From IMG/VR virus record IMGVR_UViG_3300033076_001306, positions 1-34,657 of that record: a DNA stretch of 34,657 nt; one strand, given 5' to 3'. The notes below the pieces were generated by a model. It was not told the DNA's origin. It saw only the letters and a program-made list of their open reading frames with translations, and did not search any database. This stretch comes from a virus (lineage: Duplodnaviria; Caudoviricetes). The position numbers and the translations under genes were made by a program. Of the stretch, positions 9,279 through 32,651 are shown in pieces. The number at the start of each line of letters is the position of its first letter. The first letter of the stretch is position 1.

Positions 9279-9571
9279 TATTTGACGGGGACGAAGGTGA
9301 CGTAAACAGGATTTCCGGAGGTGATGGAGGCGCAGTTGATGCGGATGGAACTGCTTGGCGCGATCAAGCGGCATTCCGTGGTGCCATCCGCAAATGGCAC
9401 TTCGCCGTTGTTGATCGACCGATATGCGTTCTGACCTTGGTCCAGGTAGGAAAGGAAGAGCACAAACGCATCGTCCGAGCTGAACGATGCGAGATATTCC
9501 TGGCCCGGGATAGTCGCGACATCATAGTCACCGGTGGACGTGATCGGATTGTTTCCAGCAAGTACAGCCAT
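9278..9571 (-). CDS. small beta-rich virion/tail protein
   Basis: 97-aa ORF coupled (TAATG) to the SGNH gene and downstream of a late motif. Confidence 0.65.
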   Translation of the reverse strand: MAVLAGNNPITSTGDYDVATIPGQEYLASFSSDDAFVLFLSYLDQGQNAYRSINNGEVPFADGTTECRLIAPSSSIRINCASITSGNPVYVTFVPVK

Positions 9572-17572: not shown

Positions 17573-17617
17573 AGGATTCCATGGGGATCATGGTCCTGTC
17601 GCTTGAACAGGAGGCGA
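17573..17617 (-). promoter_or_regulatory. late promoter motif copy 2
   Basis: TTGAACAGGAGGCGA at 17603-17617; AATCCT 24 nt away and 9 nt before ATG. Confidence 0.65.
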
Positions 17618-17622
17618 GAAAA

Positions 17623-17981
17623 TGGTGGACCTGGCGGGGGTCGAACCCGCGTCCTTCACTGATGTCCTGACAAATTTCAAACATGCTTATGGTGTGCCGT
17701 TGCGGTGGCTCTTGCCGTAGGGCGATCCGTTTTGGGATCACCTCCACCACTCACTGATGGGCGGCAGTGAGACCGTTTTGCCCGGTTTGTTTCCCCATCG
17801 GGAGCGGGCGCTCAATGGGGCGTGGATGCTCAGGCAGGAAGGGCGAGATCGCCGAATTCGGTGCCGGAGCGGGCATTGTTGGTGCCGTTTGTTGTCGTGA
17901 TCGGCTTTTAAAGGGGCCAACCGATCAACCCCTGCATGCTATTTGTCGGGATTCCAATGGAGTCGAAACCATTGCAGGCCC
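17623..17981 (-). ncRNA. ssrA: tmRNA
   Basis: 5' GGGCCTG pairs with 3' CAGGTCC-ACCA with G3.U; T-arm GCGGG-TTCGACC-CCCGC; helix 2 pairings GCATGC/GCATGT and GACAAAT/ATTTGTC; pk1 AGGGG..GATCGG..CCCCT..CCGATC; tag frame 17830-17886. Confidence 0.93.
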
Positions 17982-17987
17982 AGAAAG

Positions 17988-18064
17988 TGGTTGCGGGAGT
18001 CGGACTCGAACCGACGACCTCCGCGTTATGAGCGCGGCTATCTACCAACTGATGCTATCCCGCG
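17988..18064 (-). tRNA. tRNA-Met(CAT), initiator-like
   Basis: 77 nt cloverleaf; C1.A72 mismatch, anticodon loop CTCATAA, TTCGAGT T-loop, encoded CCA. Confidence 0.9.
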
Positions 18065-18069
18065 ACGGG

Positions 18070-18113
18070 AACCTGAACCGTCAACCGCTGGTTGTCAGTT
18101 GAACGGATGGCGA
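18070..18113 (-). promoter_or_regulatory. late promoter motif copy 3 (upstream of tRNA-tmRNA)
   Basis: TTGAACGGATGGCGA at 18099-18113; CAGGTT 23 nt away and 5 nt before the tRNA 5' end. Confidence 0.6.
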
Positions 18114-20111
18114 TTATTTCCCGGCCATCCAACCGGTGACGCGGGTATGGTTAAGGGGGCTGGGACCATCTGGGGAATAGACGTCAAAGCGGCCGGTGAG
18201 GTTACGGCCTTGGTAGCTGGCGGCGGTGCGGTCCATCCATCGACCGGTGTGGGTCTCCCCGTTGGCGAGTTTCAAGGTGATCAGGTCGCCAGGCTTGAAA
18301 CCGGATTCCCGAAGCTGGGCCTTCTTGTCGGGCGACACGGCGAAGTCCCCTGCGCGGAGTTTGTTCGGCGTGTCTTTTCCGGCTTTGATTTGCGCGGCCT
18401 CGTCGGCGGAAACCCAGGCACCGATTCCCGCGGCGCTGTTGCTGTCCGGGGTGGAGTCGGTCTTGTAGCCGTAGGAGGTGATGCGGTCGCCAGCGTCGGC
18501 GGAGTGGGTGGGATGTGGGTCAAACATGCCGGAGCGGAGTTGTGCGCGGGTTTCGGCACCGGCAATTTCAAAAACTTTGTCGTCGATCTCGGAGGCGGAG
18601 GCGGTGGGATTGGTCTTGAGGAACTCGGCGAGCTGGGTCTTGGCGCGGCCGAATTTCATCTGTGCGTCAATCTTGGCGATCGAGGCGGAGCGGATGGCCT
18701 CCGGCGACTGGTATTTCACGGCAGTCTGCTCGTTGAGGATGGCCTCGGCGGCGGCTTGGGTGAAGGGATCGGCCGTGATGTTCTGACGCTGGGACCAGGT
18801 AGGAGCGAGGGCCCGGAAAGCGGCGAGGCGCTGGGTATCTTTGAGGTCCCTGTCGGTGACGGTCTTGATTTGCTCCGGAGTGAGTCCCAGGCTGGCGAGC
18901 TTGTTGGAATCAGTGAGGAATCCGTCATTGATCACTCGGGCGACGGGCATTTCGGCGGTGCCGTCGTCGGTCTTTCCAAAGCGACCGGCCTTGAACGCGG
19001 CATCGAGCGCGGCGTGGGCGCTGTCGGCGTGGGTCTTGATCTCGGTCTGCTTCCCTTCCCGGACGTCCTTGATGCGGCGGTCGAGCTCGTCGCGCACGGC
19101 ACCGGGGGGAAGCGTGCGGGCGAGGCTGTCGATCTTCACGAAATCCGTGTCGAAGGAATCCGACGTCGGGGTGTAGGTGGCGAGGAGGGCGGAAACTTTC
19201 CCGACCGTCTGGGCCTGATACTCGGGAGTGGCGCGGGCGGCCTTGTCGGCCTGGGAAAGCTGCTGGGCCAGGGCGGTCTTCAGTTCCTCACGGGCGGCGG
19301 GGCGGAGTTCCGGGGTTAAGCGGTCAATCTGCTCCGGGGTGGTGATGTTTCCGGACACGATCGCGTCCTGGATTTTTCCGGTGACGTCGTAGGTGACGCT
19401 GCGGAGCTGCTGCTTGGCGTGGGATTGAAGATTGGACCATGAGCCCATGTCGTATCCCGGGGCGGGCTTGTCGGCCGGGTTTGCCTCGAGCCAGGCGTTG
19501 GGATCGTGGGCGATCTCGGCGAGGGCTTCGTTGTGGCTGACGGTTTTCTCGAAACCCTGCTCGAGGAGCGCGCGTTTCTCAGGAAGCACGATGCCGGCGG
19601 CCTGGGCACGGTTCAGGGCGTCCTGGAATCCTGCATGGTCGCCGGCCTGCATGGCGGATTCCATTTCGTTGTTGAGGGCCAGGGAGGCGCGTTGAACCGT
19701 GAGGCGCGCGGCGTCCTGCGCGGAGTTGATCCGGGCGTTGGTGGCGAACTCGTCGTAGTGGATGGCCAGGCGTTTCTTGGTGTCCTCGCTGAAATCCTGC
19801 TGGTCGATCGCGCCCTTGTAGGTGGAAAGCCAGTCCTGTGTCTGCTTCACGCGCTCGGCCGGATCCTGGATCTTGTCGAGGCCGAGGCTGAAATTGGCGT
19901 AGTCCTCCTTCAACTTGTTCCGGAACGAGGATTCCTTTTCAGCCTGGTCGACCTTGTCGATGGTCTCGGCGTGGGCGGCAAAGGCTTCCCCGGCGCCACT
20001 GATCGCCTGGGCGAGGTTTCCCAGGGCGCGGCTTTGCGGGAGATTGCCGGACATTTCCGGCATGCGGGCGGCGACTGGCTGAAGGTCGGGGGTGTCGGGG
20101 AGGCGGATCAT
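18114..20111 (-). CDS. internal virion protein with C-terminal 3D/DPBB-like peptidoglycan-lytic domain
   Basis: Start MIRLPD (ATGA overlap); helical body; C-terminal ITSYGY..AVSPD..KPGD..MDRT..RFDVY. Confidence 0.7.
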   Translation of the reverse strand: MIRLPDTPDLQPVAARMPEMSGNLPQSRALGNLAQAISGAGEAFAAHAETIDKVDQAEKESSFRNKLKEDYANFSLGLDKIQDPAERVKQTQDWLSTYKGAIDQQDFSEDTKKRLAIHYDEFATNARINSAQDAARLTVQRASLALNNEMESAMQAGDHAGFQDALNRAQAAGIVLPEKRALLEQGFEKTVSHNEALAEIAHDPNAWLEANPADKPAPGYDMGSWSNLQSHAKQQLRSVTYDVTGKIQDAIVSGNITTPEQIDRLTPELRPAAREELKTALAQQLSQADKAARATPEYQAQTVGKVSALLATYTPTSDSFDTDFVKIDSLARTLPPGAVRDELDRRIKDVREGKQTEIKTHADSAHAALDAAFKAGRFGKTDDGTAEMPVARVINDGFLTDSNKLASLGLTPEQIKTVTDRDLKDTQRLAAFRALAPTWSQRQNITADPFTQAAAEAILNEQTAVKYQSPEAIRSASIAKIDAQMKFGRAKTQLAEFLKTNPTASASEIDDKVFEIAGAETRAQLRSGMFDPHPTHSADAGDRITSYGYKTDSTPDSNSAAGIGAWVSADEAAQIKAGKDTPNKLRAGDFAVSPDKKAQLRESGFKPGDLITLKLANGETHTGRWMDRTAASYQGRNLTGRFDVYSPDGPSPLNHTRVTGWMAGK

Positions 20112-20575
20112 GAGCGTTTGGTGCGGACGTAGCCGGTGTAGGCGGAGGTGGCGGCGGAGAGGCCAGTGGCGACGCTGTTGATGTTGGCGGCCTGCTGGCC
20201 TTGGTCGGCTTCCCAGAGTCCCATTTGGCCTTGAGCACGGAGGGATGCGGCCTGCATGTTGGCGGCGCGGGCGGCGTCCTGGATGCCGAGGTTGAGGTTG
20301 GCGGAGGATTCGCCGAGGATGGCGAGCGGTGTCCCCTCGGTGTTGATCAGGCCATTCCCGGCCATCTGGTTCCGGATCTCGGCAAGCTGTCGGCGGTTTC
20401 GGATGCGCTCGCGCTTGAGCTGCTCCGCGTTCTGGAGTTCCACATTCTTCGCCTCCTGATTGGCGACGATGTTGTTGTACTGCGCGGCCTTGGTCTGGGC
20501 CTTGGCCTGCTGCTGTTGGCCGTAGATGGTGGCAGCGGTGGAAACGACGGTAACGCCTACGACGATCCAGGACAT
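20108..20575 (-). CDS. internal virion protein (T7 gp14-like position)
   Basis: Hydrophobic N-terminus then A/Q-rich helix, typical of ejected pilot proteins; follows tail genes. Confidence 0.7.
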   Translation of the reverse strand: MSWIVVGVTVVSTAATIYGQQQQAKAQTKAAQYNNIVANQEAKNVELQNAEQLKRERIRNRRQLAEIRNQMAGNGLINTEGTPLAILGESSANLNLGIQDAARAANMQAASLRAQGQMGLWEADQGQQAANINSVATGLSAATSAYTGYVRTKRS

Positions 20576-20577
20576 GA

Positions 20578-21018
20578 TCAGGTGGGGGATGGGAGTGAAT
20601 CACGCCATCCGGGAATAAGTTCCGGGGCGAGGGGGTTGTGGTGGCGGACGATGGTCTGGCCGATCTTTTCCACGTCCGTCTCAGTGGTGACGTGGAAGGT
20701 GGTCCAGATGGTATCCTCCAGCGCATGAAGGGCCCGGCGGGTGCCTGGCTGGGTGATGCCGGTATGCGGCGCGGAAAGGGTGACGCTGGTGCCGTGGGAG
20801 TCGGTCACTTCGATGACTCCCTTGGAAATGACGAAGGGATGCTCGGTGAGGTGCTCCATGCTGGTGAGAAGCGTCCCTGCAGGAATCAGGATCTCCCGGA
20901 TGTAGAGGCCGGGGGTGAAGCGGTGAGTGACTTCCAAGTGCACGCGCGGGGCTCCGCTGGCGAGCATGGCGGCCTCCAGTTCGTCGATCGTCGGGTGTTG
21001 TGGATCGAGGAGGTTCAT
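20578..21018 (-). CDS. cupin-fold phage protein
   Basis: HRFTPGLYIREILIPAGT...EHLTEH...GTRRALHALEDTIWTTFH; ATGA-coupled to the tail gene. Confidence 0.75.
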   Translation of the reverse strand: MNLLDPQHPTIDELEAAMLASGAPRVHLEVTHRFTPGLYIREILIPAGTLLTSMEHLTEHPFVISKGVIEVTDSHGTSVTLSAPHTGITQPGTRRALHALEDTIWTTFHVTTETDVEKIGQTIVRHHNPLAPELIPGWRDSLPSPT

Positions 21019-23519
21019 TTTTCGTGAAGGCTCCAGCGGAGGACGATGGCACGCGCAAGGAAGGGGTAGGGCTCGGCGTGGGTAAGGGTGAACGTGAGAT
21101 CGTTGACGTGGGCCTGTGGGAGGACGGTTTCGAGGATGCCGGTGCCCCACTTGGCGATCTTGTTCGTGTCGTAGACGAGGGGTTGATCCAGCCCTGCGTA
21201 GGTCACCGTGCCGCCATTGGACGAATAGGCGTTGATCACGATTTCGTTGGCGCGCTTTTTCCGGAAGTGCGTCGGGCCGTTGTCGGCATTCACGTCGAGC
21301 GGGAGCGTGGTGAGGGTGGCCGTGATGGGGAGGCCTGCGTGGCAGACGTCGTAGGGAGACGCGGCGGCAACGGAGGTGGTGAGGAGGCCGGTGGAGGCGT
21401 TGCAAGTGGCGGTCCCGGCAACGAGGCCTCGGCAAATCGTGACGGTGGTGCCGCGGTGGATGGCGGGGAGGGCGAGGGTAGAGAAAACGCCCACGCTGCC
21501 GCAATCGACTCCATGATAGGAGAGGGTGACGCCTTCGCCTTCCTGGTAGGCCTGCTGGCGGCTGGCAAACTTTTCGAGGATGTAGGAGCTTCCGCGCTTC
21601 ACCACGAAGAACACGGAATCGTCATTGGCCTGGTTTCGAACTACGGCGACGGACTTGAACTCTCCATTGCTGGTGGTGTGGCGCGACCACGCGGCAATCT
21701 GCTCGTCGCGGTTGTAGTTGAAGGCAAGCATGGTCCCATCGGCGCGGACGGCCCAGAGGTAGGGCTCCCGGTTTTGCTGCCAGGCAAGCTGGGTGATTCC
21801 TCCGGTGGTGATATGCTCGGCAAGGCGGGAAAGATCGGCGGCGTCATAGCTCTCGTTTTGGAGCTGGTAAGCCATTTCGCGGAGGCGTCGGCCTTGGCGT
21901 TCCACAAAGAAAATCGAATCGTGATGGACCAAGGCGGGAAGCGTGGTCGATCCAAAGCGGGTGTATTCCCGGGCGAGGAGGTTGGAAGGGGAAAGCGGCG
22001 AGTCGCTGGTTTCCGATCCGAATACCCATTCGCCTCCACCGGTGCCGATGAAAAGACGGCGCTGGCTGGCGATCCAGCGGATGGGGTCCATGCGGGTGCC
22101 GGCGAGCGTCACGAAAATGGCGCTGTCGGCATCGGTGCCGGTCTTGAAGTTGATCAGGTCGTCGGTTTTCGAGGTCCAGACGCTGGCCGGTTTCAAGGTG
22201 GTGCCTCCGAAGACGAGGCGGCGTTCGTGAATGCCCACGGCGGCCGGATAGCCTTGGTAGGCGGAAAAGGCTCCCTCGGTCCAATACTCCGTGGTGCAGG
22301 CCTCCACGGGCGTCACGCTGGTGGCGGTCACGCTGGTGCTGGAGGTAAAGGCGGTGATCTTGACCAGGCCGGAGATGAAAGGTTCCGAAGAGGAAAGAAC
22401 ACCCTTGGGACTGGAAGATCCGGCGGCGCTGTAGGACCATTTCACGCGCATCATGACGCGGACGTCCTCCACGCCTTCGTCGGCGACGTTGCGGTTTTTC
22501 TCTCCCTTGTATTGGCGGAAGTCGGTCCAGGTGACTCCGTGGTCGAGGCTGCGCTGGAGAATGAAAGTGCCCTCCCAAGTTCCAAACGTGTTGAATGCCC
22601 AAGCGCCTTCGATCGGGATCGCATTGGACCATTTCCCATCGTTGCCACTGGTGGCGGCGATTTCGGTTTCGAAGAGACTGGCGGGGCGCTTCTTGGAAAT
22701 TTTGAAGATGGCTCCGACGTGGGAGGAGGAAAAGAGGGCGGAAGAGGAGGTGAGGGTTACGGATTGGCCGATCGTGCTGCTGCTGTCGTCGGCGTATTTC
22801 CAGACGGTCGCCCAAAAGGTGCCGGTGTTCGGTTTGTTGTTGGCGGTGTTGGCGGTGTGGCCAACGGTGCACTCGAAGCTCCCGACGCCTGCCACTTTGA
22901 CGATGTCGCCGACTGCGTAAACGGTGCCGTTGGTCCAGGTGGAGCCGATCGAATTGGTGAATGCGGTGGTGAGGGTGAGGCTTGAGTTGGCGTTCTCGTC
23001 GAGGAGGGGCGGATAACTGAAGGGGATCTCGGCGAGGGAAAAGGTGGCGGTGGCCAGGGTGAGGGAAATCTGCTGCGGGACAATGTCCGGGCCAGTGATG
23101 AACATCACGTTGTTGACCTGCGCCATCTGGAGCAGGAACGGATCGGCCGTGGCCAGGGAAAGCGTTTGCGTGAGGGTTCCGTCCGACTGGTAGACTTTGA
23201 TCTGGGTCGTCGAGAAAGCCAGGATGTAGGCGCGGCCATCGCCTTCGTCCGGGATTTCTCCGGTGAAGGGTGGCAGCGTGGGCACTCCGTAGGCCTGGCC
23301 TCCGGATACGTAGAAAGTCTGGAGGCGACACGCGTCGGAAAGCGTGGCGAGGTAGAGGGTGCCGGGCCGTTTCCGGAATCCACCGAAAGGCATGGGGAGG
23401 AAATTCTCCATCACGGCCACGCCGGTGGCATGCTTGGTGAAATCGGTGCGATAGTTCAGGTAGGGAGAAAGCTCTCCCCCATTGAACGAAAGAAACGATT
23501 GGTGAATGGGTCCGGCCAT
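21015..23519 (-). CDS. tail tubular/nozzle protein B (T7 gp12-like)
   Basis: N-terminal SFNGGELSP..RTD, GGFRKRPG, GYPAAVGIHERRLVFGG, QIAAWSRH. Confidence 0.85.
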   Translation of the reverse strand: MAGPIHQSFLSFNGGELSPYLNYRTDFTKHATGVAVMENFLPMPFGGFRKRPGTLYLATLSDACRLQTFYVSGGQAYGVPTLPPFTGEIPDEGDGRAYILAFSTTQIKVYQSDGTLTQTLSLATADPFLLQMAQVNNVMFITGPDIVPQQISLTLATATFSLAEIPFSYPPLLDENANSSLTLTTAFTNSIGSTWTNGTVYAVGDIVKVAGVGSFECTVGHTANTANNKPNTGTFWATVWKYADDSSSTIGQSVTLTSSSALFSSSHVGAIFKISKKRPASLFETEIAATSGNDGKWSNAIPIEGAWAFNTFGTWEGTFILQRSLDHGVTWTDFRQYKGEKNRNVADEGVEDVRVMMRVKWSYSAAGSSSPKGVLSSSEPFISGLVKITAFTSSTSVTATSVTPVEACTTEYWTEGAFSAYQGYPAAVGIHERRLVFGGTTLKPASVWTSKTDDLINFKTGTDADSAIFVTLAGTRMDPIRWIASQRRLFIGTGGGEWVFGSETSDSPLSPSNLLAREYTRFGSTTLPALVHHDSIFFVERQGRRLREMAYQLQNESYDAADLSRLAEHITTGGITQLAWQQNREPYLWAVRADGTMLAFNYNRDEQIAAWSRHTTSNGEFKSVAVVRNQANDDSVFFVVKRGSSYILEKFASRQQAYQEGEGVTLSYHGVDCGSVGVFSTLALPAIHRGTTVTICRGLVAGTATCNASTGLLTTSVAAASPYDVCHAGLPITATLTTLPLDVNADNGPTHFRKKRANEIVINAYSSNGGTVTYAGLDQPLVYDTNKIAKWGTGILETVLPQAHVNDLTFTLTHAEPYPFLARAIVLRWSLHEK

Positions 23520-23522
23520 GGA

Positions 23523-24191
23523 TCAGACTGGAGGCTGGGGGGAATAGGAAACTCCGGAGCGGGATCCAAAGCGGGACCGGACAAGATTGCTCTGGGAGAT
23601 CAGGGATTGAGGTCCAAAGTTTTCACCGGAGGCGACTTCGCGGGCGTCGGCATTGGTGGCCGCGACGAGTGCAAGGTTGTTGAACTTGGTGAGAACGTCG
23701 TTCTCCATGCTCATGTCTTCCGTGATTCGTCGCGCAATTTTGGATGCGAGCTTGAAGACCAGGGCTTCAATAAACAGGGAATCGTAGTCGGTGATGGCAG
23801 CCGAGTTGCACACGTAAACGATGTTGATGTGCTCGGTGGCAGCATCCACGCCGGTCACCAGTAGCTTTCGGCCTTCCAGGGCAAATTTCCGGACGGGATT
23901 GCTGGGATCCTCGCCAACGATCCGAATCAGTCGGACATGATCGGAGGGCAAGGTCCAGGCGCTGGTCCATTCGGTGGTGGGCGCGGTGGTGGAGGTCAGT
24001 TCCGCGCGCTTGGTGGCAAAGTTCCACTGGTAGGACCGCAAGAGGCTGTCCCGGGTGATCGTGTAGAACTGCCGGCATGCTTTTCCCTCCTCGGTGGTAT
24101 CGGTTTCGATGTCGGTAAGCTGGCGAGCTCCGATTTCGGACAGGGCCAGATTGGCGATGTCGGTGGTGGTGGAAATGGTGGGGAGGGACAT
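23523..24191 (-). CDS. tail tubular/adaptor protein A (T7 gp11-like)
   Basis: DIANLALSEIG...RDSLLRSYQWNFA...LPSD...YDSLFIEALVFKLA. Confidence 0.85.
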   Translation of the reverse strand: MSLPTISTTTDIANLALSEIGARQLTDIETDTTEEGKACRQFYTITRDSLLRSYQWNFATKRAELTSTTAPTTEWTSAWTLPSDHVRLIRIVGEDPSNPVRKFALEGRKLLVTGVDAATEHINIVYVCNSAAITDYDSLFIEALVFKLASKIARRITEDMSMENDVLTKFNNLALVAATNADAREVASGENFGPQSLISQSNLVRSRFGSRSGVSYSPQPPV

Positions 24192-24199
24192 GAGTCAGG

Positions 24200-24250
24200 A
24201 AAAAGAAAACCGCCCGCGCTTTCGGCTCCGAAGAACCTGGGCGCGGGCGG
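24200..24250 (-). terminator. intrinsic terminator after capsid/decoration genes
   Basis: CCGCCCGCGC/GCGCGGGCGG stem with internal cUUCGg hairpin, followed by TTTTCTTTTT. Confidence 0.8.
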
Positions 24251-24283
24251 CACACCCATTCGTCAAACGCGCAAGGAAACGCT

Positions 24284-24757
24284 TCAGGCTTTCACCCGGT
24301 AGGCGATCGTAAAGATCACCTTCACCGCGGCGGTCAGCGATGCGGCGGAGGCCACGGTGCAGACAATCCGCTGGTTGGCGGTTGTGGCGATGCGGTAAGG
24401 CGTCGCGACGGCGGCCGGGATATTGGTGTTGGTGAACGGAACCGCCCCGCCGGCACTCAGCACAATGCCGGATGCGTAGCGGTCATCGTCGGCGGCGTCG
24501 CCGACTTTGAGGGTGAGGGTGGTTCCGGGGTCGGCGCTGGTGGTGCAGTAGGACAACTGCGGGACAACGACGGCACCAAGCGGAAGATCAACGAGCTGGA
24601 TCGTGTCGTTGGCGGCCTCGGTCCCCGCCAGCGTGTAGCTGATGGTGGACATGAGAACCACGCCGGTCACGTCGTCGCCGTCGACCAGGCCAGTGCTCAG
24701 GCGACCGGAGTCGACTGCGAGCTGCTTGGTGATGATGGAGGAATTGAAGTCAGCCAT
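24284..24757 (-). CDS. capsid decoration/cement protein
   Basis: 157-aa beta-rich protein directly after the capsid gene (DTIQLVDLPLGAVV..TLKVGD..DRY). Confidence 0.7.
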   Translation of the reverse strand: MADFNSSIITKQLAVDSGRLSTGLVDGDDVTGVVLMSTISYTLAGTEAANDTIQLVDLPLGAVVVPQLSYCTTSADPGTTLTLKVGDAADDDRYASGIVLSAGGAVPFTNTNIPAAVATPYRIATTANQRIVCTVASAASLTAAVKVIFTIAYRVKA

Positions 24758-24796
24758 GATGGTGGAATTCTAGGAGTTGATGGTGATGGAGGTGGA

Positions 24797-25744
24797 TCAG
24801 GCGACAACGATGCCGGAGATCTGGACAACCTTCTCCTCTTCCAGGCGGACCGCATTCAGGGAGTACTGAGTGAGGAACTGGATGGCGTTGGAGAGGTCCG
24901 GACGGCGGTCGACGGTGGTGGTCATGTCTTCCCAGACTCCGAACTGGATGGCGTCCTGCACCCACACGAAAGCCGTGTGGACGGTGCTGGAGGTGATCAG
25001 TCCGTCGCGGTTGGAGATGGTCCAGTTGATGCCGAGGAACGTTTTGATGCGGCCCTTGTCGTCCAACGTCATGGGCATGAAGTCGGTGCTGAAAAGGCGG
25101 GATCCCGAGGTGGAGCTGGCTTCGTGGCGGAGCGCGGCTTCCATCTTGGAAGTCATCACGCCTTGAAGCATGACGCCGGAGCGCATCATGTCTTCGTTCC
25201 ATGCCTCGTTGTTGCCGAGGATTTCAAGAGAGCGAATCACCTTGGCGACCGAGAGGCCGGAGTCGGTGGCGGAACCGGTGAGAACCCAGTCCTTGGCAAC
25301 CTTCTGGGTGCTGGGGAGTGCGTTGGCATCGGTGCCTTCCGCGCCGGAGTAGGCGGTTCCCTTGAGGGCGTTGATGATGCGGTCGTCGACGTCCTTGCCA
25401 TAGGCGCGGGCGTGGGCGAGCACATGCTTTCCGCGCGGGGCGATCGTCGGCATGAGGCCGCGTTCATCCCAGCGGGATTCAAAGGTGGGAACCTGGAACT
25501 GACGCGGGCGGAGCCAGCGCTTGGCAGTCGGCAGGTCAACGGCGACCACTTTCTTGTAGCGGTCTCCGGTCACGTCTTCGGAAGAGACGTCGCCGACTTG
25601 GTTGTAGGTCTTGGCTTCACCGGTGCAGCCGGTTTCGACTACGACTTTGGAACGAAGGCGTTCGTTCTGCTGGCCGACGAGGTTGCGCCAGTTCGTGTCG
25701 AACTGGGTCGTGAAATGTTGTGGGATAATGAGGTCTGCGGACAT
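24797..25744 (-). CDS. major capsid protein
   Basis: HFTTQFDTNWRNLVGQQNERLR, KDVDDRIINAL, FLGINW, GVWEDMTTTVDRRPDLS, AVRLEEEKVVQI. Confidence 0.9.
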   Translation of the reverse strand: MSADLIIPQHFTTQFDTNWRNLVGQQNERLRSKVVVETGCTGEAKTYNQVGDVSSEDVTGDRYKKVVAVDLPTAKRWLRPRQFQVPTFESRWDERGLMPTIAPRGKHVLAHARAYGKDVDDRIINALKGTAYSGAEGTDANALPSTQKVAKDWVLTGSATDSGLSVAKVIRSLEILGNNEAWNEDMMRSGVMLQGVMTSKMEAALRHEASSTSGSRLFSTDFMPMTLDDKGRIKTFLGINWTISNRDGLITSSTVHTAFVWVQDAIQFGVWEDMTTTVDRRPDLSNAIQFLTQYSLNAVRLEEEKVVQISGIVVA

Positions 25745-25884
25745 GGCAGGAATAGAGAGTTCGGAGTTGATGAGGTTCCGGCTCGATAGTCCTCGGGAGA
25801 GGGTCGTTGCCTGCGGGAACGTCCCGGTGGCGGCGATCTCCGGCGGGTCCGCGATGGGATAGTCCGTCTTTCGACTGCATGCGC

Positions 25885-25928
25885 ATGATCAGGGAAATCG
25901 CGAAACCTGTCGCTTGAACAGGTGGCAA
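25885..25928 (-). promoter_or_regulatory. late promoter motif copy 4 (capsid)
   Basis: TTGAACAGGTGGCAA at 25914-25928; GATCAT 23 nt away. Confidence 0.65.
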
Positions 25929-25964
25929 AAAGAAAACCCCTGGGACAATGTATGTCCCAGGGGT
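25927..25964 (-). terminator. intrinsic terminator after scaffold gene
   Basis: 12-bp stem ACCCCTGGGACA/TGTCCCAGGGGT plus TTTCTTTTT. Confidence 0.85.
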
Positions 25965-25999
25965 CCCCCTGTTTGCTGGTCCAGCCAGACCGGCAAAGT

Positions 26000-26911
26000 T
26001 TACGCGGATTGCTTGAGGAGATCGGCGACCATGTTCATGGCCTGAATGTCTCCGTTCTGGTATTTCTCTCCCCAGACCGGATCCTTTCCGCTCATGATTT
26101 CGTCAGCCTTCTGGCGCGGGCTGCGGAGATCACCGAATCCGGCCGGCGTGCGGACGTGGTCCTCGGCCGTGAGATTGGAAACGTGGAGCATGAGCTTGGC
26201 GAACGCCGGGATGTTGGCCAGTTGCTCGATGGCGGCATTGTCGGCCGTGATTCCTGCACCTTCCGCCAGCTTGCTCATGAGGTGGCGGACGATGCTGGTG
26301 TTCTTCTCGAAGTTGCCACGCCATTCCGCGATCAGTTCATTCTTGGCTTCTGCCAGGCGGTTGGCCTGGGCATCGCGTTGGGCCTGCGCGTGTGCGGCCT
26401 CGATCTCGATCTGGGCGGCGACAAGGGCCTGCATGGCCGGCGCGGGCACGTGATGCTTGTGCGCGATTTCGGCGAGCTTCTTGCCTGCTTCCGGGTCCCA
26501 GGTGACACCCTCGGGGAGGGTTTCCGGTGGGGCGATGCCGTAGGCGTCCGGGGTTTCCGGCACGTTGGCGAGCTGGCGGAAACGAGCAACATCTTCCGGC
26601 GAGGAGGTTTCCGTGGGATAGGACGGGCCAGCGCCACGGAAATGGATCAGGGACTTGGCCAGGCCTTTGATGTCCTTGAAGGTGGCGAGCTGGGCCGCGT
26701 GGGGCGCAAACTCGTCTCCAAGTGCCAGGTGCCAATCCTTTTCCAGCGTGCCGTCTGGCTTCAGGTAGGTGGGCGTGGAAGGCGCGGCCGGTGGTGGCGT
26801 GGTGGCCGGCGGCGCGGTGCTGTCGATCACGGCGGGCGTGGTCGCTGGCGGTGGCGTGGTGGCCGGTGGTGCTCCGGTATCGGGTGGATCGATGGTGGCT
26901 GTGTCGGACAT
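26000..26911 (-). CDS. capsid assembly/scaffolding protein
   Basis: P/T/A-rich N-terminus, FKDIKGLAKS, PETPDAY, ELIAEW; located before the capsid gene. Confidence 0.8.
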   Translation of the reverse strand: MSDTATIDPPDTGAPPATTPPPATTPAVIDSTAPPATTPPPAAPSTPTYLKPDGTLEKDWHLALGDEFAPHAAQLATFKDIKGLAKSLIHFRGAGPSYPTETSSPEDVARFRQLANVPETPDAYGIAPPETLPEGVTWDPEAGKKLAEIAHKHHVPAPAMQALVAAQIEIEAAHAQAQRDAQANRLAEAKNELIAEWRGNFEKNTSIVRHLMSKLAEGAGITADNAAIEQLANIPAFAKLMLHVSNLTAEDHVRTPAGFGDLRSPRQKADEIMSGKDPVWGEKYQNGDIQAMNMVADLLKQSA

Positions 26912-26938
26912 GGGAAACAGGGATTGAGGGTGTGGGGA

Positions 26939-27427
26939 TTAGTTCTGGCAGGCGGCCAGGCGATCGAGGAACGGCTGGAATTCCGGTCCGAGGTTTTTCT
27001 GGCGGATGCTGTTGAAGCGGTTCCGGTAGGTGGTGCGGAAATCCTGGTCGCTCATGTGTTCCGCTGCCCAGAGATACCAGGGCTCGCAGTCGGTGCCGTG
27101 GATGTCGTCGGTGGGTGGAGGCGGTGGCATGTCAACGGACGGCCTCCGGAGATTTTCCTCGGCCATCTTCCGGAGTAGCGAGATCGTCGAGGAGCTCTTG
27201 GAAGACGGCGCGGCGTCCGTCACGGATGGCGGCGGCAAAGGGGTCGAGTCGTTTGCTGCCGGGGGCACGTACGAAGGCGGGGTAGTCGTATCCGCATCGG
27301 GATCGGATGGCGGCGAGAACGCGCTTTCCGTGTTCGCTTCCGAAGGTGGCGCGAAGGTCGGCGAGGTACTCGGCTCGTTCTCGAAGGATTTCGGCGTCAC
27401 GATCGGATTTTTCTTTGGTCGGGCCAT
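26939..27427 (-). CDS. hypothetical protein (start either MARPKK at 27427 or MPPPPP at 27130)
   Basis: Open frame; C-terminal WYLWAAEHMSDQDFRTTY domain; long form overlaps 27132..27437. Confidence 0.55.
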   Translation of the reverse strand: MARPKKNPIVTPKSFENEPSTSPTFAPPSEANTESAFSPPSDPDADTTTPPSYVPPAANDSTPLPPPSVTDAAPSSKSSSTISLLRKMAEENLRRPSVDMPPPPPTDDIHGTDCEPWYLWAAEHMSDQDFRTTYRNRFNSIRQKNLGPEFQPFLDRLAACQN

Positions 27428-27437
27428 GGTGGTTCAC
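27132..27437 (-). CDS. Bbp19-like post-portal protein
   Basis: TFGSEHGKRVLAAI..D..AAIRDGRRAV motif typical of small genes after podovirus portals; GTG start. Confidence 0.7.
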   Translation of the reverse strand: MNHHGPTKEKSDRDAEILRERAEYLADLRATFGSEHGKRVLAAIRSRCGYDYPAFVRAPGSKRLDPFAAAIRDGRRAVFQELLDDLATPEDGRGKSPEAVR

Positions 27438-27460
27438 TTTTCAGGGGTTGGGGGAGAATG

Positions 27461-29101
27461 TTAGGCGGTGGGAATCATTCCGCCGAGTTGCTGTAGGGCT
27501 TCCGGTCCGCCGAGGTCCTTGACGGTGGCGGCGGCTTGTTGTGCGGCCTGGGCCTGCTGGGCTTGTGCGCGGGCATCCCGCATTTGCTGGATGGCTTCCG
27601 GTGGGCGAACGAATTGCTCTGGCAGTCCCTTGGCGCGCATGAGGTAGGGCACGATCACGTCCCAGTCCATGGCGTCGAGAATGCTGGGATCGCTGGCGGC
27701 GAGGGGAAGCGTGGTGGCGAGGATGTCGTTGAGATTGGCGAGGTGGCTCTGCTCGAGGGCGAGGGCCATGGCGCTGACAAATTCCACGTGCGGATCCGCG
27801 ATGTATCCACCGAGGTCATCGAACTGGATGACGTTTTGCGGCGGTTTCGGGAATGCGCCCTGGCGGAGCAGAATCGCAAACGAACGGCGGAGCGTGGGGA
27901 TCAGGAATTCCCGGCAAAGCTGCGAGAAGATCGGGTGGAAGAGTTCACGGCTTTCCCCAAGAATGGCGCGCACCTGCTCGGCGGTGGCATCGCTGCGGAG
28001 TTGGCTGACGGCATTGAAGAGCGGGACGAAGAAAGCCTCCTCGATGGCGCGGCGCTTCTTGTCGGCGCGGGCTTCTCCCAGGTCGATTCGGGAGTTGGTA
28101 AGCCATTCTTCCGGCGGGGCGGATCCGGAAATGGGGTCGTAGCAGGTGAGGCCCATCGCGCGGAAATCGATGTCGCCTTTGATGTTGCTGCCGTATCGGA
28201 CACGGGGGAAGAGGGCGAGCTCGGTTCCGGTGTCGAGCATCTGCTCGAGGACGTTGGCCTGATTGGCCTCCGGCAGGGCGGCATACGCGGGACTCCAGCC
28301 ATAGGGGGAATCTCCCCAGGTGGCCCATCGGGAACAAGCGATCGGCATTTCATCAAAACCCGATTCGTGAAGGATGTGGGCGTCGTCCTTGAGGATGTGG
28401 AACGAGGCAAATGGCTTGTTCTTGGCGTCCTGGGCGCGCGGGTCGCGATCTTCCCGAGGGAAAACCATGTGCACGATCTTGAGCTTTTGCTGGGCCGTCT
28501 TCGGGTCCTTCAGTTTCTCATTGATGGAGGGAGGCAAGCGGTCCGGAAAAGCCTCCTGGATCTGAACGGGGGTCCATTCGTAGGTCCGGGAAATGGTGGT
28601 GATTTCCCCCATGGAGTTTTCCTCCACTGAGTAGGTGCCAACCGGGAAGGCGCGGAAATGGAGGCCTTGGCGATCGAGGGATTCCGTGATCTCGGTGGTG
28701 GCGATTCCAAAGGCTCCCCGGTCGAGGTAGTGCTCCTGCGCTTTCGAGTAGAAATTCGACGAGGCGAGTTTGGAGGCGAGAATTTCGGAACAGACCTGAT
28801 ACCAGGAAACGGCGGACGCGTTTTGTGCCAGGTTGGGCGGCGGCCGGAGGACCATCCACCGCGCGCCCATTGGCGTGATGCGGGATGCCTGGCCATTGGC
28901 GAGGATGTTGTTGGCCCGCATGGCGGTCCCGTCGAAGCTCTCGGCGAGCTTGGAACGGTCCGGCGTGTCGGACTTCACGTTGATCATTCCCCGGCGTGGG
29001 TGGATCACGTCGGCAAGCTCCTGCCACAGTGGATCCCACTGTTGACGCCCCTGATCGAGGAGCGCGGCTTTCTGCAGCAGCTTTTCGGCCAGTGATTCCA
29101 T
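27461..29101 (-). CDS. portal (head-tail connector)
   Basis: WDPLWQELAD..P, FDGTA, SNFY, GFDEMP..RW..SPYGWSP, ATAEQV. Confidence 0.92.
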   Translation of the reverse strand: MESLAEKLLQKAALLDQGRQQWDPLWQELADVIHPRRGMINVKSDTPDRSKLAESFDGTAMRANNILANGQASRITPMGARWMVLRPPPNLAQNASAVSWYQVCSEILASKLASSNFYSKAQEHYLDRGAFGIATTEITESLDRQGLHFRAFPVGTYSVEENSMGEITTISRTYEWTPVQIQEAFPDRLPPSINEKLKDPKTAQQKLKIVHMVFPREDRDPRAQDAKNKPFASFHILKDDAHILHESGFDEMPIACSRWATWGDSPYGWSPAYAALPEANQANVLEQMLDTGTELALFPRVRYGSNIKGDIDFRAMGLTCYDPISGSAPPEEWLTNSRIDLGEARADKKRRAIEEAFFVPLFNAVSQLRSDATAEQVRAILGESRELFHPIFSQLCREFLIPTLRRSFAILLRQGAFPKPPQNVIQFDDLGGYIADPHVEFVSAMALALEQSHLANLNDILATTLPLAASDPSILDAMDWDVIVPYLMRAKGLPEQFVRPPEAIQQMRDARAQAQQAQAAQQAAATVKDLGGPEALQQLGGMIPTA

Positions 29102-29289
29102 TAGCCGAGGGTGTTCTGGGTCCCTGCCGGAGTGCTTCCCATGGGCGCTGCCAGGAGCGTCTTGGAGAAGTCATAGCGTTTCCGCTCGCGCTTCTTGGCA
29201 TCGATCGCGGCCTGGGCCTGGTCGGCACCGGTGGCAGACACGGGTGGCGGGGGTGGAGGCGGTGGCGGGGGTGCTTTGGAAGATCCCAT
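29101..29289 (-). CDS. small Pro-rich pre-portal virion protein
   Basis: MGSSKAPPPPPP...KTLL...TLG, coupled to portal (TAATG). Confidence 0.7.
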   Translation of the reverse strand: MGSSKAPPPPPPPPPPVSATGADQAQAAIDAKKRERKRYDFSKTLLAAPMGSTPAGTQNTLG

Positions 29290-29296
29290 TTCCGCC

Positions 29297-29341
29297 AATG
29301 TAGGGCGGCGCTATGGGTGCAGTCGCTTGAACAGGTGGCGA
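29297..29341 (-). promoter_or_regulatory. late promoter motif copy 5
   Basis: TTGAACAGGTGGCGA at 29327-29341 inside the upstream gene; TACATT 24 nt away and 7 nt before ATG. Confidence 0.7.
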
Positions 29342-29667
29342 AGTTCCACGCGGTGGAGGCGGTTGTTTCGGCGCTGGAATGTGAGGGTCCCGACGCAATG
29401 CTCGGCGGCATCGTTCAAGAGTGCGCCAAGCGGTCCGGCCGCTGCCCAGACGTGGAATTCCGCATCGGCACCGGCGCATGGGAACGGGATCAAGGCCGGG
29501 TGTTCGTGGTCCGGCGCGCGGCTTGGCACCCATCGACCCATGAAAAACACGGCATGCGAGGCATAGACCACGCCATGCTGGAGGTGGAAATCCAGTGCGG
29601 CAGTCCATGGAATGTGGGGAGGCCCGTCCCGATGATAGGCTTTGAAGGCACGGAGGTAGGGGGTCAT
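29311..29667 (-). CDS. hypothetical protein downstream of terL
   Basis: MTPYLRA... start overlaps the terL stop (ATGA). Confidence 0.65.
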   Translation of the reverse strand: MTPYLRAFKAYHRDGPPHIPWTAALDFHLQHGVVYASHAVFFMGRWVPSRAPDHEHPALIPFPCAGADAEFHVWAAAGPLGALLNDAAEHCVGTLTFQRRNNRLHRVELRHLFKRLHP

Positions 29668-31238
29668 CGTCTTGCGCGGGGGTGTCCGACTGCGCGGGGT
29701 TTTTCTGTTATGGTTCCACCGTCGAGGAGGCCCAGGTGGCGGGCTTCTCCGAAGGTGCGGAAGGCATCGGCGGAGTGTGAGAAGAGATCGTGTTTCGGCA
29801 TTTCCCGGAGGGTGGTGCCGGCGGGGTTGAGGTGCTTCGAGTAGCCTTCCAGGCAGGCGATGCCGGAGGGCATTTCCTCCCCGTTCTTTTCCCGGGCCGT
29901 GTCGCAATGGGTCTTGTGGAACCAACAATGCGGGAGGACGTCGCGGGTGTGGCCGATCCCGATCCACACGTCCGGCGTGCGGGGCACGATGACGCAGTTG
30001 GTGAGGCCGCATTCCTGGAGGGTCTGGAGGAAGCTCTTGCCGTCGTTGGGCGAGCGCTTGGCAGCATCGTGCGGGAGGAAGTTCTTGGTGATCGGCCGGC
30101 GATACTTGGCTTCCCAGGTGCGGATCTGGTCGACGTGGGCACCGGCGGACACTCCCTCGGTCTCGAACCAGTCGAGGACCAGGAAAAAGCGGCCGACCTG
30201 CTGGATGAGCCATTTGGCGCACTGGTCGCTCATGCCAAGGTCCCAGAAGGTGTAGAGCGGTTCGGCGAGTTCCTGGCCGAAGTCGCAGATTCGACCGGCG
30301 GCGCGGAGGTCCGCCATTTCGGTGCCGTAGATGGCGCCTTCCGCGATGGCCTCGAAGGCTTCGCCGGGGGTGGAGGGGAATTCTTTTTTCATGCCGTGGC
30401 CTTGTTCGGCTTGCTTGCGGTCGTACCAGAAAAGCTGGGGTAGGGTAAGGCGGACGCCGATCTCGCGGTGGAGCTTGTCCCCGTAGGCGAGGATTTCCGG
30501 GCGGATGGGTTGGTTGGTGTGGTCGAGCTGATAGCGGGGATCGTCATACCAGGGGAAGAAGTGGAAGCGGGAATCGATCTTCGACAGGGTGGCCGGATCC
30601 TGACGCATGGCGGCGGTCATGAGGCGGTAGTTGATTCCTACCTTTCCTCCTTCGTGGGTCGTCTCGATGTTCCGGATGTTTCCCGGGGTCATGGAGTTGA
30701 AGGCTCCGTTGACGATTTCCGTGGCCTTTTTTGGGGCCCAGATGGCGGTCTTTCCAAGCTCGGAAACGAGGAGGCGCTGGGGTGTGGATCCGCGGAGGGA
30801 AGTGGAGCATTTGGCGACGGAACCATTGGAGAAGGTGATCTGTTCAGTGTTGATCGAGGCCTGCACGGCCTGTTTGATGATCTTGCCGAGTCGCCAGGTG
30901 TCCGGGTGGATTTCCGGATCATCGAGCCGATCGTAGCACAGGCCCATCATGGCGAGCTTTGATTTCGCATCGTCGAGGGTGTAGTCGATGATGCCCGCGG
31001 TGAGGCCGGACTTGGAGAAAATCAGGTCGTCGGTGTAGAGGGGTCCGGCAATGAAGGTGGAGAATCCCAGTTTCCGCGCCTTGAGGACGTGGTTGCAATA
31101 CCAATAATTGTCGTAGAACCGGCGCTGGGCGAGGTTCGGCCTGAACTTCGTGAGGTTTCCATCGGCATCCCGGATCGTGTAGAGGTTGGAAATCCTCCAT
31201 TCACGGGATGCAAGCGGGGTCTGACGAAGGTCGAGCAT
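29664..31238 (-). CDS. terL: terminase large subunit
   Basis: LKARKLGFST (Walker A), LLVSELG, ETT, FFPWY, WDLGMSD, LPHDA, HD..SHSADAFR. Confidence 0.93.
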   Translation of the reverse strand: MLDLRQTPLASREWRISNLYTIRDADGNLTKFRPNLAQRRFYDNYWYCNHVLKARKLGFSTFIAGPLYTDDLIFSKSGLTAGIIDYTLDDAKSKLAMMGLCYDRLDDPEIHPDTWRLGKIIKQAVQASINTEQITFSNGSVAKCSTSLRGSTPQRLLVSELGKTAIWAPKKATEIVNGAFNSMTPGNIRNIETTHEGGKVGINYRLMTAAMRQDPATLSKIDSRFHFFPWYDDPRYQLDHTNQPIRPEILAYGDKLHREIGVRLTLPQLFWYDRKQAEQGHGMKKEFPSTPGEAFEAIAEGAIYGTEMADLRAAGRICDFGQELAEPLYTFWDLGMSDQCAKWLIQQVGRFFLVLDWFETEGVSAGAHVDQIRTWEAKYRRPITKNFLPHDAAKRSPNDGKSFLQTLQECGLTNCVIVPRTPDVWIGIGHTRDVLPHCWFHKTHCDTAREKNGEEMPSGIACLEGYSKHLNPAGTTLREMPKHDLFSHSADAFRTFGEARHLGLLDGGTITEKPRAVGHPRARR

Positions 31239-31268
31239 TCCTTGTTATGGCAACTGGAGTTTCAGGAA

Positions 31269-31664
31269 TTAGATGTTCGGTGGACCCTTGCGGGCGGCTT
31301 TCCGGTCGCGTTTCCGCTGGGCCGCCGCCATCCGCTCCAGGTCGGCGTCTGTCTTCGGTCGCTTGGGGTCATGGCGTATCGACGCGGATGACGGGCCACC
31401 ACCGGGCAAGCCGAAGGTTCCGGCCATCGCCATTGCTCCGGCGATGAATGCCAGCGCGGGCAGTCGCGAGCGGCGGACGAGGGGCGGCTCGGGTGCTTCG
31501 TATTCGACGTGCGCCGTGTTGATCGTGATGCCGCGCTCGGGCGGCTCGACGACCACGACGGGGCTTGCGGGCCGGTTGGCCATTGCTGCGACGACGGAGG
31601 CCGTCATCGTGGTCCTTCCATGGTCCACGTGGCCGATCATTCCGATATTGAGGTGAGGCTTCAT
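31269..31664 (-). CDS. EF-Tu N-terminal mimic protein (cassette-borne)
   Basis: [22 protein letters not shown]...[14 protein letters not shown] matches the EF-Tu P-loop and effector region; rest unrelated (hydrophobic segment, basic tail). Confidence 0.8.
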
Positions 31665-31680
31665 AGGTAGGTTCAAAGAC

Positions 31681-31767
31681 ACCGAACAAGGGCGGGGAGG
31701 CGATGCCGGTCAGCCGTTATCGGGTAGCGAGCCCTCGGGCGGCAACGCCTCCCGACCAGCGCTCACT
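31681..31767 (+). mobile_element. attC-like site 4 (solo cassette 31276-31761)
   Basis: ACCGAAC-AAGGG-CGG(G)GAGG-CG-ATGCCG...CGGCAA-CG-CCTCCCG-ACCAGC-GCT; CACCGAAC (31680-31687) complements GTTCGGTG (31275-31282). Confidence 0.7.
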
Positions 31768-32269
31768 GCAGCGGTGCCCGCGGCAGAGAATCGGCACTGC
31801 CGAGGCTGCGAATGGCGTCAACAAGTTGCTGGGCGGTGGTGTTTTCGGGAGAAGATGCGTCGAGTTCATTGTCGAGCTGGATGGCTTTCAGCGGGTCGAG
31901 CTTTTCGATCCGCATGGAGGAGGAGGTTTCGGATTCGTTGGTGGAGTGGGATTTGATCAGGTCGCCATTGGGGTCGTCCTGATTGGTGGGATCGAGCTTG
32001 GCGAGGGGCACGCGTACCACGCGGGCGAGGAAACGGCGCTTTTCCTGGATCGTGAGAAGGGACTCGTCGGCCGCTTTTTTCTGGAGGGCAAGGATGTAGG
32101 CCTCCACCTCGGGGTTTTTCCGGAGGCGCTTGGCGTTCTGGAGGGCGCTGGTGCGCTTGCATTGGAATCCTGCGGCCATGTAGGCGTCGACGAGCGTCGA
32201 GCCCTTGAGGAGCACGTCGGCGAAACGCTGGTGGCGTGGATCGCGCGGGATGGGGATCTCGTCAGACAT
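31763..32269 (-). CDS. terS: terminase small subunit
   Basis: RHQRFAD..AYMAAGF..AKRLRKNPEVEAYI..LTIQEKRRFLA..KLDPLKAIQL. Confidence 0.85.
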   Translation of the reverse strand: MSDEIPIPRDPRHQRFADVLLKGSTLVDAYMAAGFQCKRTSALQNAKRLRKNPEVEAYILALQKKAADESLLTIQEKRRFLARVVRVPLAKLDPTNQDDPNGDLIKSHSTNESETSSSMRIEKLDPLKAIQLDNELDASSPENTTAQQLVDAIRSLGSADSLPRAPLQ

Positions 32270-32651
32270 GGCTGGCAAGGCGGTTGAGGATGCGCTGGAT
32301 CTTGGCGGTGCCGGCGTCGTTCAGATGGATGGCGACGAGCTGGCCGGTGTAATAGGTCTCGAACCAGGGATTGCGGATGATCTGATTCCGAATGGCGTGA
32401 TAGGAGAGGGCGATGCGGGTGGAAAGCAGGACGATTGAAATGGGTTCCGTAGCGGTGCGCAGGGCGCTCATGATCGACCAGGTGGTGAATGCCACGTTTT
32501 CGGCGACCAGTGCGGCCTGGAGCGCTTCGGTCATGGCGGCGAGGGAAAGCTCCCGGAGGCGGTTCTTGTCGCGCTCCGGAGCTTTCTTGACGGCGGCCTC
32601 CCGAATGGCTTCGACCGCTTTCTCGGGGAAAAGTTCAAGTTGGCGACTCAT
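32262..32651 (-). CDS. putative winged-helix protein, candidate late activator
   Basis: Start MSRQLELF; TWSIMSALR..PISIVLLSTRIALSYHAIRNQI..IHLNDAG resembles wHTH; last gene before terS. Confidence 0.5.
   Translation of the reverse strand: MSRQLELFPEKAVEAIREAAVKKAPERDKNRLRELSLAAMTEALQAALVAENVAFTTWSIMSALRTATEPISIVLLSTRIALSYHAIRNQIIRNPWFETYYTGQLVAIHLNDAGTAKIQRILNRLASHV

Follow-up and report, generated by a model that had tools for sequence, protein, structure and literature searches.

A tmRNA-initiator-type tRNA pair and an EF-Tu-peptide protein as candidate, separately acquired accessory modules of a small phage

Do three translation-related elements in a small phage genome act as one system, or have they been gathered separately? 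The question is raised by the IMG/VR record IMGVR_UViG_3300033076_001306, a single virus record of 34,657 nt that was analysed over its whole length (the window) and that appears, from its gene content, to represent a small, uncultured, podovirus-like phage. The elements are a one-piece transfer-messenger RNA (tmRNA), an initiator-type tRNA, and a 131-residue mini-protein that begins with a piece of elongation factor EF-Tu. The first-pass annotation had taken them for a coordinated late-phase kit against abortive-infection systems. Their presence was confirmed (ARAGORN, Rfam, Pfam and matches to EF-Tu chains), as was the absence of other tRNAs from the window: ARAGORN and Rfam report exactly two RNA genes, the tRNA and then the tmRNA, both on the minus strand. 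The answer favoured here, tentatively and at slightly less than an even call, is that the three make up two separately acquired accessory modules (the RNA pair and the EF-Tu-peptide protein) that would help phage translation under host attack. The elements lie in the window as follows:

17623..17981, minus strand: one-piece tmRNA with encoded CCA and a G3·U70 acceptor stem (ARAGORN; Rfam RF00023)
17988..18064, minus strand: tRNA-Met(CAT), anticodon CAU (ARAGORN; Rfam 49.6 bits, cut-off 29)
31269..31664, minus strand: open reading frame (ORF) of the 131-aa mini-protein, ATG at 31664 and stop at 31269, inserted between the terminase small (TerS) and large (TerL) subunit genes (Pfam and EF-Tu chain matches)

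Comparative analysis shows, at the level of sequence, that both modules are inserts missing from close relatives, conserved under selection across unrelated phages, and reunited in one unrelated prophage. The close relatives are three records whose tail protein is 80-81% identical to that of the window (G001, 50% complete; G002, 59%; G003, 100% with terminal repeats). None of them has a homolog of the ORF or a tmRNA (0/3), and no tRNA was found in the stretches of them that were covered (G001 and G003 whole). A single copy of the intergenic motif TCGCCNNNNGTTCAA stands at the RNA site in G001 and G003, and the window has two, 496 bp apart, with the RNA genes in between. The RNA pair reads as an insert of 496 bp that is preceded by a separate copy of this putative late-promoter motif. 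The copies concerned are:

18099..18113, minus strand: TCGCCNNNNGTTCAA copy 49 nt ahead of the tRNA, forming the left border of the insert
17603..17617, minus strand: second TCGCCNNNNGTTCAA copy at the right border, upstream of the polyvalent virion protein gene
29341, 25928, 18113, 17617 and 9621, minus strand: all TCGCCNNNNGTTCAA copies ahead of virion gene blocks or the tRNA, conserved in G001 and G003

Allowing at most one mismatch, the motif occurs 6 times in the window against 0.91 expected, a figure that is partly circular because the motif was derived by eye; its conservation in relatives, which keep it at the corresponding positions, is the better evidence. Five copies lie on the coding strand, preceding virion genes or the tRNA, and the motif is absent from the other phage lineages checked; it is read here as a putative phage late promoter. 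No sigma-70 promoter was found at the RNA site or the ORF site, and no copy of the motif lies upstream of the ORF. The claim that all three elements belong to the late region is therefore supported for the RNA pair, with its motif just upstream, but not for the ORF. Single contigs of related phages in two sequencing runs (X2 and X3) keep a tRNA variant and have 178 and 176 other bases, respectively, in place of the tmRNA, so that even the RNA pair can split. In these contigs the tRNA has no extra D-arm base and stands directly ahead of the 176-178-base replacement (window 17623-17988), possibly a shortened tmRNA or another small RNA.

At the second site, the ORF is flanked by the two terminase genes:

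31763..32278, minus strand: terminase small subunit, upstream flank (PHROG 51, Pfam Terminase_2)
29664..31238, minus strand: downstream flank, probably the terminase large subunit (so called because of its position, with only unknown-function PHROG matches; 76% identical to G003)

In the complete genome G003, TerS is directly followed by TerL without the ORF, and since the two genes abut there, the ORF is an insert of its own; it lies 13.2 kb from the RNA pair, with the entire head-tail block between them. Runs X2, X3, X5 and X6 cover TerS and TerL and leave the C-terminal half of the ORF uncovered, with no contig bridging the site. In run X1, possibly the source sample, contigs span both the RNA site and the ORF site with 0 differences from the window in the listed pieces.

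The tmRNA is full-length. It matches the full RF00023 model (cmscan, positions 1-374, 114.9 bits, cut-off 47) and combines a tRNA-like domain (G3·U70, T-arm, CCA end) with helix 2 and pk1 pairing, both pk1 stems being visible, and with a tag frame that is open from the resume codon onward. The tag has 18 residues, GTNNARSGTEFGDLALPA, and ends in Leu-Pro-Ala in place of the Ala-Ala that is the typical, if not universal, ClpXP degron. Two IMG/VR pattern scans and a 41-genome search yielded six further carriers, all of them phages with other portal and terminase types. In a tree the resulting seven phage tmRNAs are split from 30 host tmRNAs with branch support 97/85; the window tmRNA is 85% identical to the copy in a prophage of genome G021 and 45-53% identical to the host tmRNAs. 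A large AT-rich phage (L045) that matched the 5′ 20-mer was excluded from the seven, since its tag ends in AA and its long branch leaves it ungrouped. In RNAalifold, 43 of 74 predicted pairs are compensatory and 473 of 516 cells paired, the structure having been predicted from the same alignment as was scored and without a shuffle control.

Read at position 95-96 (three by script, uncalled by ARAGORN), the seven phage tags are 16-23 aa long and end in LPA (3), LVA (2), LAN (1) or LAA (1), whereas the 30 host tags are 9-11 aa long and all end in AA; a terminal Ala-Ala is thus lacking in 6/7 phage tags and 0/30 host tags. In Escherichia coli, ClpXP recognition depends mainly on the terminal Ala-Ala (PMC7652416, PMC10862746), and the phage tags may be weak degrons in Verrucomicrobia. 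A clade that keeps the RNA structure and drops the degron makes for a testable claim, namely that ribosome rescue is uncoupled from proteolysis. Catalogues of phage tmRNAs go back years, and no tested role was found in the accessible portions of the literature covered. The possibility that the tmRNA is an att remnant or a host copy was ruled out by its full length, its 45-53% identity to hosts and its position inside the virion block.

The tRNA carries the features of an initiator: C1·A72, G2:C71, C3:G70 and A11:U24, together with A73. In elongator tRNAs position 1:72 is paired, and the C1·A72 mismatch, found in 5/5 phage copies, speaks against the alternative reading of CAU as a lysidine tRNA-Ile2. 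C1-A72 is also described as an initiator determinant in PMC11497404. The D-arm is irregular: it contains an additional base, and 10·25 is mismatched. The anticodon stem reads G29-C41, C30-G40 and G31-C39, and the three-G-C-pair pattern (29-41, 30-40, 31-39) of bacterial initiator tRNA-fMet is broken by C30:G40. Five of five host initiators read A29-U41, G30-C40 and G31-C39; all five phage tRNAs differ from them at pair 30-40 or 31-39, three by C30:G40. By its sequence, the window tRNA is a natural 'M1'-type swap: the laboratory M1 variant (C30:G40) shows ~20-fold lower initiation in E. coli and loses discrimination against CUG (PMC11497404). VapC toxins cleave in the anticodon or 3′ of it before the stem (PMC7180214), and nuclease evasion has been proposed for phage tRNAs generally (PMC10264068). 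The tRNA thereby offers a direct test case for nuclease evasion at a cost in initiation. The fMet-specific VapCs reportedly need G-C pairs in the anticodon stem. An fMet-type tRNA accompanies the tmRNA in 5/7 carriers, and both carriers without it are complete genomes.

Pfam assigns the mini-protein to GTP_EFTU (E 1.4e-8, model positions 1-66 of 188), and its best match among solved EF-Tu chains has E 3.1e-13 over chain residues 9-73. Its residues 1-58 comprise EF-Tu beta1, the P-loop (with Lys replaced by Arg), helix A and a piece of switch I, that is, a G1 motif GHVDHGRT and a G2 motif RGITI, spaced by 28 residues in contrast to 35 in EF-Tu. G3, G4 and domains II/III are absent, the EF-Tu match stopping at about residue 73, and the C-terminal part is an undescribed phage module made of a hydrophobic and Gly-rich linker and a basic helix. 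AlphaFold2 predicts helices but no compact fold (pTM 0.25, mean pLDDT 63.9). Because the EF-Tu match ends at ~73, no compact fold is predicted and the module has no confident match, the mini-protein is best modelled as an EF-Tu peptide on a swappable carrier and not as a GTPase. The module hits 0 Pfam families at E 1, nothing in PDB below E 0.7 and, in the ESM Atlas, an unnamed best match with score 0.80; in the INPHARED phage collection only tRNA matches were found and none for the module. A resemblance of the basic helix to SmpB/ArfB tails was considered and is unsupported, there being no Pfam, PDB or named Atlas match.

About 20 homologs cover almost the full ORF, and further ones came from a profile search. 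The C-terminal module is present in 69 of 270 stored proteins; the EF-Tu piece was detected in 34 of these (the window counted twice), and in the remaining 35, with no EF-Tu P-loop piece detected, the module is alone, truncated or fused to another domain. Of the 33 members with the EF-Tu piece, 30 retain the beta1 motif, 23 the P-loop motif and 9 RGITI. Over 23 codons of the P-loop block, the window and the gene at locus L053 of a second genome share 6 identical and 10 synonymous codons, with 7 changed; a 13-residue block agrees with three real tuf genes at 13/13 residues, while 8-11 of its codons differ synonymously. These codon patterns show that the EF-Tu piece is under selection at the protein level. 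Twelve viral loci match residues 2-57 alone; the four of them that gave a translation are real EF-Tu starts and served only as tuf comparators. Host tuf contamination or a pseudogene was ruled out by the full-length match in ~20 homologs, the shared phage C-terminus, a phage-like third-position GC content (GC3 0.79) and the synonymous-biased conservation. The family, with its 33 stored sequences and two loci, could serve as bait for host factors that police EF-Tu.

Several further observations concern the family. In L014 1222-1926, P0022-P0028, P0134, P0143 and P0153 the carrier module is fused to a second N-terminal domain of ~90 aa and of no known identity, and P0143 has this domain together with the EF-Tu piece. 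A large, lower-GC phage fragment (G004; L013 10001-10375; L042 232-6748) encodes 15 tRNAs in an array and a version of this carrier whose EF-Tu piece is degenerate. Hairpins are predicted immediately upstream of the EF-Tu-piece genes of both the window (31665-31765) and L053 (9900-10000), and the family C-termini diverge just past a common Pro-Asn; together, these may mark cassette-type recombination borders.

How often do the three parts meet? A GTDB scan for the ORF confirmed one genome out of 38 pattern matches, a Verrucomicrobiae metagenome-assembled genome (MAG), G011, and the module profile found the same genome alone among 401 of its class. The locus lies in a prophage of ~61 kb, delimited by a 24-bp tRNA-Leu repeat (att), whose capsid, portal and TerL show no similarity to those of the window and in which a tRNA(CAU) and a tmRNA of the phage clade flank the terminase. 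Its EF-Tu-piece gene lies beside att in an accessory array on the opposite strand, outside the late block; in other phages the ORF likewise sits in opposite-strand accessory arrays, so that it is not a conserved late gene. The tmRNA motif occurred in 1/401 genomes in each of two samples, again only G011, and the window tmRNA as a DNA query (E 1e-25) in 0/401; the two samples overlap, G011 is the centre genome and was used to build the pattern, and the carrier G021 lies outside both. In this MAG (L053, L074) the sole tmRNA above cut-off is the prophage copy, and the host-type initiator tRNA pattern was not found, probably through incompleteness of the assembly.

The host of the window phage is probably a member of the Verrucomicrobia, because the sole GTDB locus of the ORF lies in a Verrucomicrobiae MAG and because the prophage in G021, a relative of that MAG, has a tmRNA 85% identical to the window's and DnaC and rep proteins 46-54% identical; a GTDB capsid scan found no prophage relative of the window. 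Over the seven tmRNA carriers, all three parts meet in two. Two carriers are fragments and uninformative in this count (G007, 20% complete; G772, whose contig ends 2.2 kb upstream of its tRNA), as is the large-phage fragment G004 (8% complete). All five records that have the module and lack the EF-Tu piece (48-100% complete) are without a tmRNA. The co-occurrence across related phages that was proposed as a check of the kit idea is not borne out: close relatives have none of the three or the tRNA only, and the EF-Tu piece is in 2/7 carriers. The parts are neither linked nor always together, the three-part association is suggestive on this genomic evidence, and an obligate three-part late kit is not what these records show.

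Each part can be set beside known systems. Phage tmRNAs and evasion tRNAs are already known (PMC4131195, PMC9004378, PMC7474061, 10.1101/572362, PMC11915505), with a tmRNA in 402 of 18,146 phage genomes (PMC9004378), and the tmRNA database file of PMC11915505 may already include the present tmRNA sequences. Like the one-piece tmRNAs (RF00023) of mycobacteriophages Bxz1 and Wildcat and of Bacillus phage G (PMC4131195, PMC9004378, PMC7474061), the window tmRNA is a full gene, likely late, in a genome where no SmpB gene was found. Unlike them, it belongs to a 35-kb podovirus-like genome and to a clade apart from hosts, with tags of 16-23 aa (against 9-11) mostly lacking Ala-Ala and an fMet-type tRNA as partner. 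The tRNA, like nuclease-evading phage tRNAs (PMC10264068; PARIS and retron, PMC11464382, PMC11555353), differs from the host near the junction of the anticodon stem-loop; unlike these it is of initiator type, with a swap equal to the laboratory variant (PMC11497404). The mini-protein shares with EF-Tu the P-loop and the RGITI segment of switch I, which is cut by Lit and by the Thoeris caspase, and differs in being limited to ~58 residues, in a 7-residue internal shortening, in its P-loop Arg and in its fusion to a phage module. Huge phages combine EF-Tu homology and a tmRNA in the same genomes (10.1101/572362), but with whole factors in genomes >200 kb, whereas here a peptide rides on a carrier in 35-61-kb phages. 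In the full-text literature, as far as it was accessible, neither an EF-Tu-peptide phage protein nor phage tags that lack the degron were found described.

Under the favoured explanation, the RNA pair would be transcribed late from TCGCCNNNNGTTCAA. The tRNA, formylatable by virtue of C1·A72, is altered at the foot of its anticodon stem, next to the site cut by initiator-tRNA nucleases such as VapC, and may trade initiation efficiency for likely nuclease resistance. The tmRNA would free ribosomes stalled on cut mRNA with the help of host SmpB, its long tag without terminal Ala-Ala acting as a weak ClpXP degron. The mini-protein, presumably unable to fold as a GTPase, would display EF-Tu beta1, P-loop and helix A on a disordered phage carrier (and, in the subfamily of the window, the intact RGITI site as well), likely as a decoy that competes with EF-Tu for a host factor recognising that region. 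Joint presence would then reflect shared selection in hosts with translation-targeting defences and not physical linkage. That the role is directed against abortive infection is something we infer. A more specific and rather doubtful version holds that the parts form a modular shield, in which a nuclease-resistant initiator tRNA and a tmRNA that rescues without destroying, its tag evading ClpXP, are joined by a new class of EF-Tu-peptide decoys for a host sensor or effector of the buried beta1/P-loop; if true, it would point to an undiscovered defence system that guards EF-Tu.

A number of points weigh against the favoured explanation. RGITI is kept in 6/8 close family members and only 3/25 others, against 30/33 for the normally buried beta1, and because the cut site is lost and the buried strand kept, a simple substrate decoy for Lit fits poorly. 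Lit cuts EF-Tu at Gly59-Ile60 and requires Gol bound to domains II/III (PMC3014915), and the mini-protein lacks these Gol-binding domains; Avs7 also binds domains II/III (10.64898/2026.01.04.697583). The caspase of type IV Thoeris is a promiscuous Arg protease (10.1101/2024.10.24.620036), which a single decoy would titrate poorly, and Doc modifies domain III (PMC7180214). Since none of the four fits the family-wide pattern well, the partner of a decoy would likely be another factor. The module itself may hold the function, because the 35 stored proteins without a detected EF-Tu P-loop piece carry it too; the tRNA may be merely a weak helper, given the initiation cost of M1-type tRNAs (PMC11497404) and its irregular D-arm. 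Finally, the EF-Tu piece is absent from the complete genomes G006 and G771 and from the G021 prophage, and because the window was chosen for having all three parts, only one independent joint case exists.

The alternatives can be weighed on the same evidence. The coordinated late kit of the first-pass annotation, aimed at abortive-infection systems whose targets are mRNA, initiator tRNA and EF-Tu, is rather unlikely. It draws support from the recurrence of all three parts in the unrelated G011 prophage, both traits being rare in Verrucomicrobia, from changes in the tRNA and tmRNA at the places that host nucleases and ClpXP read, and from the exact Lit site in the window copy. Against it, the parts are gained and lost separately: just 2/7 carriers have all three, the insertions lie 13 kb apart, the ORF has no upstream TCGCCNNNNGTTCAA and sits in an opposite-strand accessory array in G011, the relatives in X2 and X3 keep the tRNA without the tmRNA, and the Lit site decays across the family. 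A doubtful but slightly better-placed option dispenses with defence altogether, such that the RNA pair would aid recycling and initiation for virion synthesis and the EF-Tu piece would be exchangeable cargo on a carrier with an unrelated role. The RNAs do directly precede the 7.9-kb polyvalent gene and lie near terminases in other phages, the Wildcat tmRNA is very abundant late (PMC7474061), and the carrier module occurs alone or with another N-domain; a booster would however not be expected to lose its degron and weaken its initiator stem in parallel, nor does cargo account for protein-level selection on the EF-Tu piece.

Sabotage is clearly unlikely. Here host translation would be inhibited or retuned, or superinfecting phages excluded from lysogens, by the joint action of a poor initiator, a tmRNA that competes for SmpB but does not lead to degradation, and an EF-Tu fragment that titrates an EF-Tu partner, as suggested by the DS6A-type tmRNA fragment that inhibits host tmRNA (PMC4131195, PMC11915505), by the weak and less discriminating initiation of M1-type tRNAs (PMC11497404) and by the two carriers that are prophages. 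Yet the tmRNAs retain their full length, a conserved structure and an open tag frame, and a translation poison made late would harm the phage itself. Least probable by far is that neutral hitchhikers met by chance in a shared gene pool, although gene flow seems free (DnaC and rep are common to the window and the G021 prophage) and the distribution of the parts is patchy: the compensatory pairs of the tmRNA (43/74) and the synonymous-biased protein codons argue for selection on each part.

All annotated virion and replication genes of the window lie on the minus strand: a replication initiator, a DnaC-like loader, TerS, the probable TerL, a head-tail connector (PF12236), a portal and tail tubular proteins, as well as:

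24797-25744, minus strand: major head protein (annotation)
9632-17563, minus strand: polyvalent virion protein, 2643 aa (ART-PolyVal, PF18760, and ParB-like matches)

PADLOC matched 0 of 8 window proteins. The middle of the polyvalent protein (~aa 963-1542) is unmatched in the close relative G001 and matched only over short stretches in G003, which makes it a swapped cassette. Downstream of this gene, a GDSL lipase/esterase-domain protein (7959-9374, minus strand) is likely a tail-associated capsule esterase.

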